From: a virus | IMG/VR virus record: IMGVR_UViG_3300005393_000308 | Length of the DNA: 64,000 nt | Reading direction: 5' to 3' (one strand) | Shown: one piece after another, positions 10,120 to 63,035 of the stretch | Position numbering within the stretch: the stretch's first letter is position 1 | Layout: each line of letters begins with the position of its first letter | Position numbers and translations under genes: made by a program | Notes under the pieces: generated by a model | The model's database searches: none | Told to the model about the DNA's origin: nothing | What the model saw: the letters and a program-made list of their open reading frames with translations, nothing else

Positions 10120-10144
10120 TTAGTTGTCACCCCACTACTCACTG

Positions 10145-10321
10145 TTAGCTCTGCGGTATTATTTCTATCTGGCTATCATCGGCGCCCATGACTAACTTGA
10201 GGAACTCGATGCACTCATCCGTGGATGCGAAGTCGGTACCCGTAAACGGATTAAACAACCGTGCTCGCTTCTCCGAGCAAGGCATAAGCGGCTTCTTTCT
10301 CTTGTCCAGCACAAAAACCAT
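10145..10321 (-). pseudogene. IscB N-terminus (22 aa) fused in frame to 36 aa of a non-IscB, presumably phage, ORF
   Basis: ATG 10321: MVFVLDKRKKPLMPCSEKRARL (PLMP motif) then FNPFTGTDFASTDECIEFLKLVMGADDSQIEIIPQS*. Confidence 0.8.
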
Positions 10322-10665
10322 GTTCCTTCCCTTCCTTTCGGAACCCCTTACGGGGCCAGTGACGGGTCCAGGCGGACTCTCCTGGACCGCTCCCCTCGCC
10401 AATGTCGCCAGCCGGTCATCTGCTCCGGCCCGTTTCGCCCACACCCCAAAGGTTGTCTGCAGCCGTAGCTTCCAGGGTCCGGGACTGGGGAAGCATCCCG
10501 GAGTGGGTCTTTAGCCTGCCAGCAACATAGCGACTTCCTTGTCTTGTCCTTCGGCTCAGCCGCTTAGGCTGGTCATAGACAGGCTTGCGGGGTCATCCCA
10601 GCAAGCCCCCGGCTTTAGCCGTGGGGTCTATGACAAGCCTCGGACTTCAGTCCAGGGTGATTGAC
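10256..10665 (-). mobile_element. Truncated IscB-type IS200/IS605 element with two stacked left ends
   Basis: GTCAATCACCCTGGACTGAAGTCCGAGGCTT (10665-10635) directly followed by GTCATAGACCCCACGGCTAAAGCCGGGGGCTTG; right end missing. Confidence 0.85.
10322..10634 (-). ncRNA. Orphan HEARO/omega RNA
   Basis: Shares GTCATAG..CTATGAC pairing, CCAGCCT, CTGAGCCGAAGGACAAG, GCTA.GTT and TTGGCGAGG blocks with the omega RNA at 43041-43302; lies directly upstream of an iscB start. Confidence 0.75.
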
Positions 10666-10798
10666 CTCAATTCTATATAGTACCGTCTACGCGAGCAGGA
10701 GAGTTTCACAGAGCAAGGAGCCCCTGTTGCTGTTCGGGTGTGAGTGAGGCCCATACGGTGGTGTGAACCTCTGTAGTTGACGTATCCTAAACATGACT

Positions 10799-11626
10799 CT
10801 ACACCACCCTTACCCCGGCAATGCCGTCCTCGACAAACCGCTCGTTCCAGCGGCAGCTCTGGTTTTCTACTTTCACTCCTTTGCCGTCGCGGGTAAGGTT
10901 GAGGATGTGGACTTCGGCGATGTCGTCCGCGCTGTAGAGCCCGGACTGGCGGGCGATCTCGTCGATGCTTTTCATGAGCACCGGCTGGCCGGGGTATACA
11001 CTGTTGAGGTAGGCTGCTATTGCCATCGCCGCTGTGCCCCTTATGGTCTGTTTGTCCATATCGTTGATTCCACTTTTGAAAACCAGGGCCAGCTTTATTC
11101 CAACAGGGATGAGTTTGGGCGTCAGCACTTCCACTCTTGAGCCGCTGCCTTTGGTTTTCTCTATATTCTTCCTGACCGCCGCCAGGATATTTTCTTCCTG
11201 TTTGATATCGTCAATGACGCAGTACACCGCGCAGGAACCCACGCCCAGGGCGTATTCGTGCAGAATAACATCCTTGACCCCGTCAACAGACAGGGCCGCC
11301 AGCCGGATTGCCATATTGTTGGCGGTGGCATCGGCCAGGGCCTGCTGGGAGATCCTGTACCTGTACTCGCTGTCGGACTCTCCTGACAACCTCTTGCAGT
11401 GCACAATATCGCCAAGCAGGTCGAGCATATCCCCTTCTGCTGTTGACACATAGCTGGCGAAGTGTTGTGTGCTGAGGTTATCGTAATAATCGGCCAGGTT
11501 TGAGTTGATTGCCGCCAGAAGCAGGCGCACTACCTGGCCGGGGCCAGAATCTTTTATCGGTGTATTCTTGAGCAGGTCGAGCGACCTGCTCTGTAATTGC
11601 TCCATGGTTTTGGCAGGAATAAACAT
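10799..11626 (-). CDS. Baseplate J-like protein
   Basis: 275 aa; STAEGDMLDLLG..RLSGESDSEYRYRI, ALSVDGVKDV; follows the gp25-like gene. Confidence 0.75.
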   Translation of the reverse strand: MFIPAKTMEQLQSRSLDLLKNTPIKDSGPGQVVRLLLAAINSNLADYYDNLSTQHFASYVSTAEGDMLDLLGDIVHCKRLSGESDSEYRYRISQQALADATANNMAIRLAALSVDGVKDVILHEYALGVGSCAVYCVIDDIKQEENILAAVRKNIEKTKGSGSRVEVLTPKLIPVGIKLALVFKSGINDMDKQTIRGTAAMAIAAYLNSVYPGQPVLMKSIDEIARQSGLYSADDIAEVHILNLTRDGKGVKVENQSCRWNERFVEDGIAGVRVV

Positions 11627-18500: not shown

Positions 18501-18554
18501 GATCGCACCCCCTCGTCGTCCTTCGTACTCTTTATAGTACCTGGCAGAAAACCA

Positions 18555-41722: not shown

Positions 41723-43027
41723 TTACGCGGCGTCGGGAGCCCCCGTCTTTAGACGTGGGGAGGAGACGCCACTCTCTCCTTTCGCATACTCGTATCCGTC
41801 TGCCCGCTGTAACAGATGCAGGTACTTTGGGTGGACGTCGAAACCGTTGAGCTCGAAGCTTGGGCGAAACCGGATCGCGACACGACCGATATGCATACCG
41901 GCATGTTTACCGTTTGGGATCAGCGCTTTCACCAGATCACCGGTGCGGTAGCCCATGAACCGCTTTGCCCGAGGCGCATGCCGGATTGGGAAGCCGTATT
42001 TGTCCGTCCCGCATCGCTGGCGCTTTCCGTATCCCTTGGCGGTTATTTGCAGCACTTGCCGCGGAAGGATCAGTCTATCCGGGGTGCTAGCTCCGACACA
42101 GGCGGCATCTATCCAGTGGGCTTTCGGCAGTCCCAGTCGAGTTCGGTTGTATTTGGTGCGGCCACCAGTTCCAACTTCAATGGGGATGTTGAAGCCGGTC
42201 AGTCTGCGATACAACTCCCAGCGCGTGGCGTTAACGGCCGCCGCGTCTTTCAGGGGAATCCGCGCCCTGGCCTGCACTTCGGGATAGCCAAACTCCTCCG
42301 CCGTCCGGTTCCCCTTGGCCTGGTTGCAAGCACGGCAGGCCAGCGTTAGATTAGACACCCGGTTGCTGCCGCCGCGGCTCTTGGGAACGATGTGCTCGAT
42401 CTCCAGCGGCACGTTCTCCGCGCCGCAGTACGCGCAGCGGCGTCCCCATTTCTCCAGCAGATACTCTCGGACTTCATAGCCGAAGAGCTCGCCCCGCTGG
42501 TACTCCACGCCAGCGATCTCCGGGGTCTGGAGCGCTTGCGTATCGAACCGGACCAGCTCCACCGACACCGCCGCTGCGGGCGCATATCGCTGTAGACGAT
42601 CCACCCAGGTCAGTACGTTCGCAACCCGGCTCACCAGCGACGGCGGCAACCAGCCCTCCGGCCGGCGGCGGTTGTCGAAGCGCGGCTTCCGGTGGCGCGT
42701 TTTGCGATTCCGCCGTGCGCGTCGCAATGCTCTGCGCTCCAGGAGCCTGCGCTTAACCTGTTCACCCCGGTGCTCGACCTCTGCCGCCCATATGATGCGG
42801 TTAGTGTCTTCACACACGAGGGCCAGCCCCGTCACCTTGGAGCCGGGGTCGATCTTGACCCGGTGCGGGTGGACGATCGATCCATCCAGCGTCCGATCTC
42901 TGAGAATGATGGTGAACGGGTAACGGCGAAAAACCGCAGCCCTGCCGGAGCGCAGGAGTTGCCGCGCTCTGGCCGGGTGACAAGGATCAAGCGGCTTTTT
43001 GTCCCTATCCAACACGAATACTCTCAA
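41723..43027 (-). CDS. iscB: RNA-guided endonuclease IscB (PLMP/RRXRR, split RuvC, HNH)
   Basis: 434 aa; KPLDPCHPARARQLL, KIDPGSKVTG, RRALRRARR, VELVRFD, CAYC..EHIVPKSRGGSNRVSNLTLACRACN, HWIDAAC. Confidence 0.95.
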   Translation of the reverse strand: MRVFVLDRDKKPLDPCHPARARQLLRSGRAAVFRRYPFTIILRDRTLDGSIVHPHRVKIDPGSKVTGLALVCEDTNRIIWAAEVEHRGEQVKRRLLERRALRRARRNRKTRHRKPRFDNRRRPEGWLPPSLVSRVANVLTWVDRLQRYAPAAAVSVELVRFDTQALQTPEIAGVEYQRGELFGYEVREYLLEKWGRRCAYCGAENVPLEIEHIVPKSRGGSNRVSNLTLACRACNQAKGNRTAEEFGYPEVQARARIPLKDAAAVNATRWELYRRLTGFNIPIEVGTGGRTKYNRTRLGLPKAHWIDAACVGASTPDRLILPRQVLQITAKGYGKRQRCGTDKYGFPIRHAPRAKRFMGYRTGDLVKALIPNGKHAGMHIGRVAIRFRPSFELNGFDVHPKYLHLLQRADGYEYAKGESGVSSPRLKTGAPDAA

Positions 43028-43040
43028 GCAAATACCTCCT

Positions 43041-43302
43041 TACGTCGGCTTTCTCGGGTTTCCCCGGTCAAGTGAGCCTCGCCAAGGTTATCCCGGCTTT
43101 TGCATCCAGCACACTGGCTTCAACCCCGTATGCCTGTTTAATGCCGGACGACAGAGCCTGGAGCTGGCTCGCGCACCCCAGGGTGTCGTGACCGGGATAA
43201 CGTAGCATCCTCGTCGCCTTGTCCTTCGGCTCAGATGCTGAGGCTGGTCATAGCCGAGCTTGCTTGTAGCAAGCCCCCGACTTTAGTCGTGGGGTCTATG
43301 AC
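43041..43302 (-). ncRNA. HEARO/omega RNA of the intact iscB element
   Basis: About 260 nt between the left end and the iscB RBS; GTCATAG/CTATGAC pairing, GCTACGTT, CCAGCTCCAGGCTCTG, CCTTGGCGAGG blocks. Confidence 0.85.
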
Positions 43303-53227: not shown

Positions 53228-54325
53228 TTAAGCAGATATCGTTCTGATAGTCGGAGGCACCGGGTAGCTGGCATCAAGAGCGACATTCTTAGCAACGGCT
53301 ATGGCTCTTCCTTTGTACAAAATACCAACGCCGTAGCGCTCTGTAAGCTTGACGTCCCTGATGTCGCGGGCAGGGTTGTCGAACTGTTCGGTTTGAATAT
53401 CCTGGCGCACCAGCAGAATACCGACATTGTTGCGGTCCACGCAGTACATGTCGAAGCGCTTGGACTCTTTGTCAAGCGGCACGAACGGCGAGACCATCAC
53501 TTCCAGGCCAAACGGAATCCGCCCCTGTATGCTGTCCGGCCCGATGCTGAACACCTTGCCGGGCTGGTCGGGACCGCCGGGATACATCTGGGCGCCGAAA
53601 GTGAGCGCGCCGTACAGCTCGCTCCTGGCAAACGCCGACCAGGTCAGCGGGTGAACGATGATCGTAGTCGGAGTAAACTCGTTGGCCATGACGGCCAGAA
53701 CCAGGTCGAGGAAATCCTCTACCGACATGGTGTCGTTAAACTGAAGGTCCTTGCCCAGGCCGGTAGTGCCGGCTTCTGGGTGATCCGCGCGGATGCTGTT
53801 GTCAAAAACAGTCCACCCGTGCTGGGAAAAGGCGCGGAAGATTTTCTGCTCCTTGTGTCTGGCCAGGGCGCGGCCGGCTTCCTCCAGCATCAGAGAGACG
53901 ATATCCCACATGCTGTCTTCGATAAGCTCCTTGGAGACCTGAACCCGCACGCCGCTCTTACCAATGCGGATCTCCAGGGCTCCTTCGTAGGTCTGCCAGT
54001 CGACGGATTCAGCGGGAATCTCGGCGCCCTCCGGCACGTCATACGCCCTGATCGGGCCGATAGCCGGAAACACATACATCTGGCCGGCATTCTTGGCCCG
54101 GACGGTCTTCAGCAGCTTGCTGCCGAGATAAACCGGCTCCGCTGCCCGCCGCACAGCACCGATAATCACTTTAGGGAGCAAAACCTGCGCGGACGGCAGG
54201 GCTGTAAACTCCTGAATGGTAGGCGCGCCAGCCACGTCTTCACCCCGCATGGCCGCGTCCACACGCTTAATCAGGTCCACTTCTTCCTGAGAAAGTTTAT
54301 AGTTGTTCAAATCTATCTTCACCAC
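53228..54325 (-). CDS. Major capsid protein (HK97-like fold)
   Basis: 365 aa; VPEGAEIP, KSGVRVQVSKELIEDSMWDIV..AGRALARHKEQKIF, DVKLTERYGVGI. Confidence 0.88.
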   Translation of the reverse strand: MVKIDLNNYKLSQEEVDLIKRVDAAMRGEDVAGAPTIQEFTALPSAQVLLPKVIIGAVRRAAEPVYLGSKLLKTVRAKNAGQMYVFPAIGPIRAYDVPEGAEIPAESVDWQTYEGALEIRIGKSGVRVQVSKELIEDSMWDIVSLMLEEAGRALARHKEQKIFRAFSQHGWTVFDNSIRADHPEAGTTGLGKDLQFNDTMSVEDFLDLVLAVMANEFTPTTIIVHPLTWSAFARSELYGALTFGAQMYPGGPDQPGKVFSIGPDSIQGRIPFGLEVMVSPFVPLDKESKRFDMYCVDRNNVGILLVRQDIQTEQFDNPARDIRDVKLTERYGVGILYKGRAIAVAKNVALDASYPVPPTIRTISA

Positions 54326-55460: not shown

Positions 55461-55494
55461 ATCTTATTAATTCCTCCTTAAAAGCTGTAAACGT

Positions 55495-55675
55495 GTGACG
55501 ACTCCCGGGACTGAAGTCCGAGGCTTCTCGGTTCTTCTAACCTGCTACCGCAAGACTGTCCCTGAAGGCCCCGTCCAGGCCTGTTTTGATTCTTTACAGC
55601 AGCCAGTATTTTCAGCTTTGCTACTGTACGTTTTCATCCCCGGAATAAATTCCGAGGTTTTCCCGCGCCATATAT
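55495..55675 (-). mobile_element. 181-nt internally deleted TnpB-type IS200/IS605 element
   Basis: TTAT then GCGCGGGAAAACCTCGGAATTTATTCCGGGG; right end GAAGCCTCGGACTTCAGTCCCGGGAGTCGTCAC; intergenic. Confidence 0.8.
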
Positions 55676-55685
55676 ATAACAACGG

Positions 55686-56792
55686 TTAGCCGTTTTTGCT
55701 TCCAAACAGTCTCGACAGTGCATCTTCAAGATCTTTGATGGTATATTCCTTATTGCCGTCTTGGGTTGACTCGACGGGCTTTTCAACACTCCTGCCCTCG
55801 CCGCCGGGAATAGGAACACTTTCAGTCCTACGCTGCCCGACCTGCGCAGAAAGTTTAACAATCTCCTTGCGCAGTAAAGCCACATCGAATTCTTTGGCCT
55901 TTTGCTCGGCTTCCTCTCTGTTTTCAAATAAACCAAGGCTGGCAACCAAGTCGCAATAGTGCTCGACCATCTCCTGGTGGATAACCCTGGCCAGTTCGGC
56001 ATTCTGTTGAGCGAGCAGGTTATGTTTTTCCACGGCTGAATTTAGCTGGCTGGTCAGTTGAGCAAGGTTCTGCTTTAACGACTCAACTTCGGTTTTCAAT
56101 ATATCAAGCTCGGGCGATTCCTGTTTGGTATCTGGAGCTTCAGCCTGCGACTCCTGGCCGGTGTTGGTGTTCTCAGCGATATTGTCGCTGTTAAACGCGT
56201 CGACTATATCTTTAGCAAGTTTGTCCATCGCTTGATCATCTTTCCTTTCATCTTGCCTGTTTGGGTTCTCACGACTTATAGTACCCACACTTTCGCCAGT
56301 ACTGGATTCATCAGCACTAACCACCCTGGCATAGGGATCAGCGGGATGGTTGACAAAAGATACCTCGTAATGCTCGTCGATACCCAGATCCCAGTAACAT
56401 AATTTGCCGTCATATACCTTGCCCTTGCGGTGCTCGCAGTAATCGGTCGCCCAGTCGGTCTTGCATATGGAGCAGACAGCCCTATTTATTATCGTGCCGA
56501 CACTTACGGTGCTATAACGCCCGTCGGCTATCTTTTTCTGCGCTTCCTCATCTATAATCGAACATGTAAGTTCCACGCAGTAGGAGCCGCGCTTCAAATG
56601 GCTACGCCCAATGCTGGACTCAGTGACTCTGCCGAGCGGGTCACTGTAAATATTGTGGTTTACTATCACAGGTTTGCCGTACGGGCCTATCCATGTCTGA
56701 ATAGCCTTCTCCAGTTCTTCCCTGGAATAGCGGTTGAAGTTCTTGGTAATGCCGCTATGAATGGCCTCCATTTTAACGGTAAGAGACATCAA
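55686..56792 (-). CDS. Prohead protease with C-terminal scaffold-like coil
   Basis: 368 aa; KPVIVNHN..DPLGRV, YSTVSVG, EVSFVNHPAD; coiled-coil C-terminus. Confidence 0.85.
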   Translation of the reverse strand: MMSLTVKMEAIHSGITKNFNRYSREELEKAIQTWIGPYGKPVIVNHNIYSDPLGRVTESSIGRSHLKRGSYCVELTCSIIDEEAQKKIADGRYSTVSVGTIINRAVCSICKTDWATDYCEHRKGKVYDGKLCYWDLGIDEHYEVSFVNHPADPYARVVSADESSTGESVGTISRENPNRQDERKDDQAMDKLAKDIVDAFNSDNIAENTNTGQESQAEAPDTKQESPELDILKTEVESLKQNLAQLTSQLNSAVEKHNLLAQQNAELARVIHQEMVEHYCDLVASLGLFENREEAEQKAKEFDVALLRKEIVKLSAQVGQRRTESVPIPGGEGRSVEKPVESTQDGNKEYTIKDLEDALSRLFGSKNG

Positions 56793-58795: not shown

Positions 58796-58871
58796 TGGAG
58801 CCGCCAGCAGGACTCGAACCCGCAACCTTACCCTTACAAGAGGTCTGCTCTACCAGTTGAGCTATGGCGGC
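58796..58871 (-). tRNA. tRNA-Thr (anticodon TGT) with encoded CCA
   Basis: GCCGCCA/TGGCGGC acceptor, GCTC/GAGC D arm, CT-TGT-AA loop, GCGGG-TTCGAGT-CCTGC T arm; 76 nt. Confidence 0.93.
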
Positions 58872-58881
58872 GCTGGTATTA

Positions 58882-59523
58882 CTAACGGCCTAGCAATCTC
58901 AACAACCTATCCAAAACAACTGCCAGCTGTGCCCGCGTCACTGGATCCTCCGGCCGGAAGTTGCCGGCCTCATCCCCTTTTAAGAGGCTCAACTGGGCCA
59001 ACCTGTCAATAGATTCCTTGGCCCAGTGACTGTTTGGAACATCAGGGAACATTCCTGTAATTACCTCCTTGACTACATCGACCGGACCTTTACCGGCCTT
59101 GATTTCTTCCAGCGGATAATACCGCCCAGGACAGGCTGTGGCATTTAACTCTCTATGCCCTACGACACGCGCGCCCGGGTAAATCTGTTTAAGTTCCTCT
59201 ACCAATTCTAGAATTGCCTGCCACTGCTCTGGAGGCATTGATTCGTTTTCATAATCGCCCTCGGCGCAGATACCAACAGAGATGCTGTTATATCCCTGGC
59301 AGTGTGCGCCTATAGCCTCGCGCGGCCGGCCGCGGTAGATACTGCCGTTTTTACGGACGTAGTAATTGTAACCACAACCAGACCAACCGTTAGCAAGATG
59401 CCAGCGGTGGATATCCTCAACCGACGCCTGGGCCGCCTCAGCGTGGTGCAGGACAATATAGCTGGTTTTGGAACGATAACTCAGGGGCCCGTTAAATTTG
59501 AGGCCCACCTCGATTATCTGCAC
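58882..59523 (-). CDS. Endolysin: N-acetylmuramoyl-L-alanine amidase (Amidase_2) plus SLH domain
   Basis: Likely GTG start at 59523 after GAGGAGG; IVLHHAEA, GYNYY, GAHCQGYNSISVGIC, GHREL..CPG; FPDVPNSHWAK..FRPEDPVTRAQ. Confidence 0.9.
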   Translation of the reverse strand: MQIIEVGLKFNGPLSYRSKTSYIVLHHAEAAQASVEDIHRWHLANGWSGCGYNYYVRKNGSIYRGRPREAIGAHCQGYNSISVGICAEGDYENESMPPEQWQAILELVEELKQIYPGARVVGHRELNATACPGRYYPLEEIKAGKGPVDVVKEVITGMFPDVPNSHWAKESIDRLAQLSLLKGDEAGNFRPEDPVTRAQLAVVLDRLLRLLGR

Positions 59524-59869
59524 TTGCAGGCACCTCCTCGACAGATTCTCCTGCGACAGGTTGCTGACAATAGTAGTTATTGTACGGTATTTGCTCGGCT
59601 GGGCTGATATTGCTCCGCCTCGACCACGGTAGCGGCAGATAGCCGAGAGACTTGCCGCCAACAGCAATCAACAGCGGGTAGCTGACGACAAGAAAGAAGT
59701 CCACCTGGTTGCCGCTTAGTTCATTAGCCAAAGCAAGTTTGATAGCCACGTACATCCATATAGGGAGAACAACCACGACAACTACGTCTGCCAGGCTCCA
59801 GCCGTCCGCATCGTTCCACCACCCGCGCGCAGCAACAGACTTTATAGAAGCTGAAAACCTCTTCAGCAC
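59492..59869 (-). CDS. Two-TM membrane protein in the lysis cassette
   Basis: 125 aa, two hydrophobic helices. Confidence 0.55.
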   Translation of the reverse strand: MLKRFSASIKSVAARGWWNDADGWSLADVVVVVVLPIWMYVAIKLALANELSGNQVDFFLVVSYPLLIAVGGKSLGYLPLPWSRRSNISPAEQIPYNNYYCQQPVAGESVEEVPASADNRGGPQI

Positions 59870-62972: not shown

Positions 62973-63035
62973 AATCTTGCTCTAGGCAGGATTTGCAATT
63001 GTCTTTCGTTATATATAGTATCTCTGGTTGCGCCA

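Follow-up and report, generated by a model that had tools for sequence, protein, structure and literature searches.

Is an IscB omega RNA that has lost its nuclease gene, and that carries the end of another transposon at its guide position, a working device directed against that transposon, or is it simply what remains when one mobile element lands in another and decays? The question is raised by a stretch of viral DNA of 64,000 nucleotides (IMG/VR record IMGVR_UViG_3300005393_000308), the whole of which is here called the window. In it an omega-RNA scaffold is preceded by 19 nt that recur 45 kb away, in the end hairpin of a mini element. The original prediction saw in this match an element-versus-element targeting system, in which an intact IscB encoded at 41.7 kb might load the orphan RNA. 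Our answer is more prosaic. The segment is likely the relic of a non-autonomous IscB-type IS200/IS605 element, left by a one-off nested insertion and a subsequent deletion. Its apparent guide against the TnpB family is most likely a by-product of a transposon landing in a transposon, and not a targeting system.

All pieces of the locus are of known kinds: an IscB/HEARO element, TnpB-family ends, palindrome-associated transposable elements (PATEs), and nested and decayed insertion sequences. Work by Altae-Tran of 2021 reportedly also deals with IscB elements with omega RNA. Non-autonomous IscB (ISC) elements with a HEARO/omega RNA belong to the IS200/IS605 superfamily (Kapitonov 2016, PMC4810608; Meers et al., bioRxiv 10.1101/2023.03.14.532601). 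Their omega scaffold derives from the right end of the transposon, the guide is the sequence outside the element and adjacent to it, and the biogenesis of the omega RNA relies on upstream transcription that runs into the element (Meers et al., bioRxiv 10.1101/2023.03.14.532601). PATEs and ORF-less IS200/IS605 derivatives carry omega RNAs too and are presumed to be served in trans (Meers et al.).

The phage and its relatives

The window is the virion module of an uncultured giant phage, and its long open reading frames are all on the minus strand. Apart from the genes listed in Table 1, it encodes baseplate and tail-fibre-like genes, an M23 peptidase tail protein and an amidase. The latter, an N-acetylmuramoyl-L-alanine amidase (58882-59667, minus strand), contains an S-layer-homology domain, which suggests a host with an S-layer, probably one of the Bacillota. 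A tRNA gene (58799-58871, minus strand) adjoins the amidase gene. The GenBank phage collection searched contained no close relative of the phage. One relative with 58% identity, L001, was recovered from IMG/VR; it has no HEARO.

Table 1. Features of the orphan omega-RNA locus and of related loci in the window
Feature	Position	Strand	Basis or remark
C-terminal half of a small phage gene	10145-10253	-	tblastn against L001
iscB remnant, ATG (10321) plus 22 codons plus 2 nt	10254-10321	-	Pfam RRXRR N-terminus
Omega RNA 3' extension and iscB ribosome-binding region	10322-10383	-	contiguous with the scaffold, in the same ~97%-identical contigs
Scaffold core of the IscB omega RNA (HEARO); origin: transposon right end	10384-10634	-	Rfam RF02033
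Terminal 32 nt (end hairpin) of an IS200/IS605 right end, TnpB family	10635-10666	+	holds the 19-mer, at the guide position of the orphan RNA
Promoter-like TACTATATA box	10674-10682	-	~8 nt upstream of the outer boundary of the relic; putative function
Baseplate J gene	10799-11626
Two abutting mini relics of IscB-type elements, end hairpins and last iscB codons	16609-16774	-	between 577-aa and 1187-aa ORFs
Intact IscB insertion sequence	41723-43302	-	omega RNA 43067-43302, iscB 41723-43027
Capsid protein gene	53228-54325
ORF-less mini element of 171 nt (PATE), TnpB IS family	55495-55665	-	between the protease-like gene and a 355-aa ORF
Protease-like gene	55686-56792

The orphan scaffold and its boundary

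The HEARO-like scaffold had been called complete, and so it is. It scores 103 bits against the Rfam HEARO model (gathering threshold 83) and covers this model from its first to its last position (1-211 of 211). The scaffold is continued by a 3' extension, at the end of which GGAAGGAAC stands before the iscB start codon. The term orphan omega RNA is equally justified, since a full HEARO here goes along with a nuclease gene reduced to 22 codons.

The limits of the element became visible by comparison with four public sequencing runs, which include wastewater and an anaerobic digester. Their contigs hold the same IscB element at about 97% identity, with 9-11 differences per 382 nt to window positions 10254-10635, and they diverge from the window exactly at both ends of this segment. 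Beyond 10635 the flanks of the run contigs are unrelated to that of the window and are not all alike. They are therefore other insertion sites of the same element, and the transposon must begin with the very first base of the scaffold. The start of the scaffold, GTCATAGACC, is also preceded by unrelated flanks in the two other copies of the window and in eight viral loci. The 5' end of the orphan scaffold thus coincides with the transposon boundary (10634/10635), and the guide position lies outside the element. An exact 33-mer of the parent IscB element found no match in viral or metagenome contigs, and a search of three Bacillota MAGs and 95 genomes of their class yielded only hairpin-level matches of about 80% identity.

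The RNA itself shows some peculiarities. At position 10466 the letter of the window creates an A.G mismatch within a 9-bp helix, where the copies of the four runs have a C-G pair. The guide region folds on itself (GGAC-UGAA-GUCC) and also pairs with a scaffold strand in the minimum-energy fold. A substitution in the pseudoknot, at 10401, was considered as well; the attempt to polarise it was dropped, because the pairing register is ambiguous.

The flank at the guide position

The 19-mer in question, GGACTGAAGTCCGAGGCTT, is present at exactly two places of the window, 10635-10653 on the minus strand and 55508-55526 on the plus strand. The repeat noticed originally is thus exact; the match between the two sites can be extended to 22 of 23 nt, and none of 100 shuffles of the window reproduced the 19-mer match. 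It was also correct to regard the 5' flank as the end hairpin of another IS200/IS605 element, as is evident from its similarity to the termini of L020, L132 and L027. The flank had, however, been taken for a second left end. The 32 nt lie on the opposite strand and therefore are a right end: read on the plus strand, they form the terminal 32 nt of such an end of the TnpB family. With L020 and L132, two copies in one Firmicutes MAG, they share 29 of 31 nt and the outer boundary.

The nature of the hairpin can be deduced from its occurrence elsewhere. In two Bacillota MAGs its copies are alike on one side of a sharp boundary and have nothing in common on the other, which implies that the motif is a transposon terminus. 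L027 displays, in this order, a left-end hairpin, a tnpB gene (376-aa ORF with OrfB_IS605 and Cas12f1-like TNB domains) and a right end that finishes in the hairpin; in L120 the TnpB ORF is antisense to the motif as searched. From these two layouts the motif is identified as the terminal right-end hairpin of a TnpB-type IS200/IS605 family, and in TnpB sense it is the reverse complement of the string quoted originally. The hairpin lies at the 3' end of the region that encodes the omega RNA of this TnpB family. Rfam searches of the TnpB-type end gave only sub-threshold matches, the best being HgcC with 17 bits on L027, and no match on the 55.5-kb mini element. Neither a tnpB gene nor the body of an omega RNA adjoins the 32 nt at 10635-10666. 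Two other interpretations of the motif were rejected. It is not a 3' end in the orientation searched, because the Bacillota copies, L120 and L027 show the right end on the opposite strand, and it is not a native regulatory hairpin of the phage, because the 32-nt flank corresponds to TnpB-family right-end termini with the same boundary.

The hairpin is widespread. A 16-mer taken from the 19-mer matched 13 viral contigs, several of them with a longer conserved block around it. The 20-mer CCCSGGACTGAAGTCCGAGG was found in at least 120 letter-identical stretches in genomes of Bacillota, Planctomycetota, Actinomycetota, Bacteroidota, Proteobacteria and others, often in multiple copies and at contig ends. 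The surroundings of the 20-nt core (CCCCGGACTGAAGTCCGAGG, window positions 55504-55523; loci L015-L134) differ by subfamily; CTT follows the core 20-mer in 41 of the 122 occurrences among the matches listed. Because the core is identical in at least 120 places across phyla, the match over 45 kb is to be understood as family conservation. That it may simply reflect a shared hairpin family had originally been added as a caveat; it turns out to be the main explanation.

The partner of the match at 55.5 kb had been described as a mini element of TnpB type. The family assignment stands: the left-end hairpin (approximately 55632-55665) is 91% identical to the left end of L027, and the other copy of the 19-mer sits in the right-end hairpin. 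A TnpB ORF, however, is not part of it; the element is a PATE of 171 nt without any ORF. The adjoining 355-aa ORF is not a TnpB, and neither tnpA nor tnpB was detected among the ORFs of the window that were scanned. On its right-end side, which has a sharp boundary at 55494/55495, the PATE shares 89% identity across 90 nt with an element that is multi-copy in the two Bacillota MAGs. These MAGs contain 15 and 7 copies of the 19-mer, respectively, and the likeness is a clue to the host of the phage. True PATEs are found at a second place in the window, around 16.6-16.8 kb, where two mini relics of IscB-type elements abut; they are flanked by ATGA and GTGA.

The remnant of iscB and the deletion junction

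The claim that iscB has been lost holds for most of the gene: an intact IscB with RuvC and HNH domains is absent from the relic, and the ORF is cut at codon 23. The start codon and 22 codons have stayed, though, and are fused in frame to a phage gene. The remnant matches Pfam RRXRR with an E value of 3.9e-5 and 24.0 bits, slightly below the 25-bit cutoff; the match spans positions 3-23 of the scanned stretch, which starts one codon before the ATG. In the run contigs the coding sequence of iscB goes on past 10254, in the window it does not. Here the sequence resembles a small phage protein instead: residues 29-60 of a 67-aa ORF of L001 (9756-9959) match window positions 10255-10160 with 78% identity (tblastn). 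Since iscB continues in the run contigs where the window turns to the small phage protein, 10254/10253 is a deletion junction. It is in frame and creates a chimeric ORF of 58 aa (10321-10145, minus strand), which consists of IscB residues 1-22 and the C-terminal half of the phage protein and uses the ribosome-binding site and the start codon of iscB. The relic has retained only the omega-side hairpin; neither a second hairpin nor an RTGR flank was detected downstream of 10254.

On the other side, the DNA beyond 10666 is ordinary phage intergenic DNA. The baseplate J protein comprises 276 aa, as compared to 275 in L001, and thus has its full length, which implies that the insertions were intergenic. 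Three genes of L001 (6931-9740; 139, 613 and 176 aa) are located between baseplate J and the small ORF, and a homolog of these three was not found anywhere in the window. For the corresponding window positions, 10120-10800, this means that either the deletion also took phage genes or the gene content of the two phages differs.

Close to the outer boundary of the relic there is a box of the type TACTATAWA, which has four matches in the window, as compared to 0.82 expected; three of them are in minus-strand intergenic regions. L001 has a similar box in the same relative place. TACTATAWA is a candidate promoter element of the phage. Boxes are seen at 10674-10682, 18531-18539 and 63012-63020 (minus strand), and near-variants around 32.1 kb and 61.5 kb.

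The intact IscB and the adjacent motif

The intact IscB unit at 41.7 kb comprises a second HEARO (43067-43302, minus strand; 137 bits in Rfam) and a protein of 434 aa with RRXRR and HNH domains, which has clear relatives among the solved IscB structures. The orphan RNA and the omega RNA of this unit are 66% identical overall; the agreement is good over the first ~105 nt and is followed by strong divergence. The N-terminus of the IscB remnant also differs from that of the intact protein. With 66% identity, the orphan scaffold is of another lineage than the intact IscB's own RNA.

Cleavage by IscB would further depend on an adjacent motif, and the RTGR-like motif that had been seen at right flanks could be re-derived. 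Sequences of RTGR type stand about 16-19 nt past the 3' hairpin of IscB-type elements, namely GTGG at 41.7 kb, GTGA and ATGA at 16.6-16.7 kb, and TGATGA, CGATGA and CGGTGA in phage relatives. The hairpin distances at both ends of the intact element fit an adjacent motif at its other, left end. For the relic, whose corresponding side has been deleted from the window, the ancestral motif has to be deduced from relatives. L020 and L132 read GAGGCTT-GGG-GTGA. Since GGG-GTGA thus occurs in the right-end subfamily most similar to the relic, the ancestral empty site may plausibly have lain inside a TnpB-type right end, where IscB would have been placed beside a proper motif. The 55.5-kb copy and the abundant Bacillota copies, in contrast, read GAGGCTT-CTCGG and lack RTGR. 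The local match was therefore rightly said to be devoid of a suitable motif. In fact, the window contains no site that combines the 19-mer with the RTGR motif as derived from element flanks, and a cleavable target is not predicted in it.

Origin of the arrangement

A nested insertion had been proposed as the origin of the arrangement, and the boundary of the IscB element at 10635, inside a TnpB-family right end, bears this out. The events may have been as follows. A TnpB-type insertion sequence or mini element would have settled in the intergenic region after the baseplate J gene, antisense to the phage genes. An IscB element would then have transposed into it, with TnpA acting in trans, 32 nt from its right-end terminus and probably beside the GTGA-type transposon-adjacent motif (TAM) of that right-end subfamily; the omega-RNA scaffold of the outer element would thereby have been split. 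Alternatively, a composite of the IscB and the TnpB-type element may have arrived as one unit. Finally, a deletion from codon 23 of iscB to about codon 28 of the small phage gene would have taken away the nuclease gene, the left end of the IscB element together with the adjacent motif, and whatever else there was of the TnpB-type element. Transcription of the orphan RNA probably continues, with the RNA forming the leader of the tail-fibre operon.

Such a history accounts for the guide without any selection of a target. As an IscB omega RNA takes its guide from the sequence 5' of its scaffold, the tip of the TnpB-family hairpin now occupies the guide position; the mini element at 55.5 kb, though unrelated, is matched as well because this hairpin hardly varies among bacteria. 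The guide position is simply the former empty site, as in every IscB insertion. The reading as a relic is somewhat weakened by the state of the scaffold, which is structurally complete and only about 3% diverged from the full-length copies in other samples; a recent deletion, or retention by selection, would give the same picture.

The main competitor of this decayed nested insertion is a working guide in trans: the 41.7-kb IscB, or another IscB of phage or host, would load the orphan RNA and cut RTGR-bearing right ends of the TnpB family in the host chromosome or in rival mobile elements. We regard this as unlikely. The presence of an intact IscB in the window makes such use physically possible, and the literature knows the idea that ORF-less elements supply omega RNAs which are acted on in trans (Meers et al.); yet the two RNAs and the N-termini of the two proteins differ as described. 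The HEARO match is complete, but the A.G mismatch disturbs a helix that is intact elsewhere, and the guide is engaged in pairing with itself and with a scaffold strand. Potential targets are numerous in the Bacillota MAGs that share the mini element of the phage; their copies, however, like the one at 55.5 kb, are followed by CTCGG, and it is the two copies of the Firmicutes MAG (G001) that join the 19-mer to GGG-GTGA. A promoter-like box stands about 40 nt upstream and the genes are all co-oriented, but the deletion that removed the nuclease also truncated a phage gene and looks accidental. Moreover, no second instance of the arrangement exists in the collections searched: among 2.9 million viral contigs none shows the junction pattern, and the one match in the metagenome collection is a chance match without a HEARO. 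Without a motif-bearing site in the window, with RNAs of 66% identity and with a unique junction, the working targeting system of the original prediction is unsupported. Less probable still is its more specific form, in which the phage keeps the orphan RNA so that its IscB cuts the right ends of one TnpB subfamily that bear a GTGA-type motif and are multi-copy in Bacillota hosts or rivals. If it were true, a transposon guide RNA would have been recruited for attack on the host genome or for warfare between mobile elements.

The segment might also serve the phage in cis, as a structured 5' leader that provides the chimeric ORF and the tail-fibre genes with a ribosome-binding site and a start codon, the RNA guide being irrelevant. 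The in-frame fusion indeed keeps the ribosome-binding site and the ATG of iscB before the C-terminal half of the conserved small protein, and the locus is situated between the promoter-like box and a tail-fibre-like gene. One junction in three would be in frame by chance, however, a structured leader of 310 nt is unnecessary for the purpose, and the arrangement is shared by no relative, so that there is no sign of selection; such a role is quite improbable. Hardly credible is an artefact of assembly, by which repeated mobile-element sequences of different genomes in one community would have been joined. Wastewater and digester communities contain both partners as repeated elements, and of the words that make up the 801-nt stretch at most 17% occur in any one indexed sequencing run. 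The joined partners share at most 1-2 nt at either junction, though, which leaves no repeat for an assembler to cross, and both flanks are collinear with L001, from baseplate J to the small ORF.

Relation to known systems

The relic of a nested IscB element, as we prefer to see the locus, resembles the ISC elements in that the HEARO model fits end to end and the scaffold starts at the transposon boundary, just upstream of what is left of iscB and in the same orientation as this remnant and the host genes, the guide being the outside flank. It differs from them in that its iscB ends after 22 codons and that the left end and the adjacent motif are deleted, and in consequence it can no longer move or home. 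With PATEs it shares an omega RNA without a nuclease gene of its own and a related nuclease elsewhere in the genome. PATEs, however, have both ends and can be mobilised, whereas the relic has one end only, owing to a deletion that reached into host DNA.

As in nested insertion sequences in general, one element, of IscB type, lies inside another, of TnpB type, here 32 nt from the terminus. Unlike in other nested insertion sequences, the guide of the inner element automatically matches the conserved end of the outer one. This way of pointing a guide by nesting is a curiosity specific to the RNA-guided IS200/IS605 elements. To our knowledge, which does not rest on a dedicated literature search, a nesting that directs an inner guide at an outer end has not been explicitly described.

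The locus is of interest as a cleanly reconstructable case of one RNA-guided IS200/IS605 element landing in another. As long as such an inner element carried its nuclease, all copies of the outer family that bear the motif would be predicted homing sites for it, a testable hyper-parasitism among OMEGA elements. In the present phage we deal with a single decayed copy, whose value is mainly one of annotation; a new system it is not. The locus also adds to the evidence of heavy IS200/IS605 traffic in the virion operon of a giant phage and to the clues to a Bacillota host.

IscB elements with HEARO RNAs are common in phage contigs of IMG/VR: 39 loci (L143-L172) were found, with up to 60% identity to the IscB of the window, and one contig carries two IscB copies (L157 and L159).
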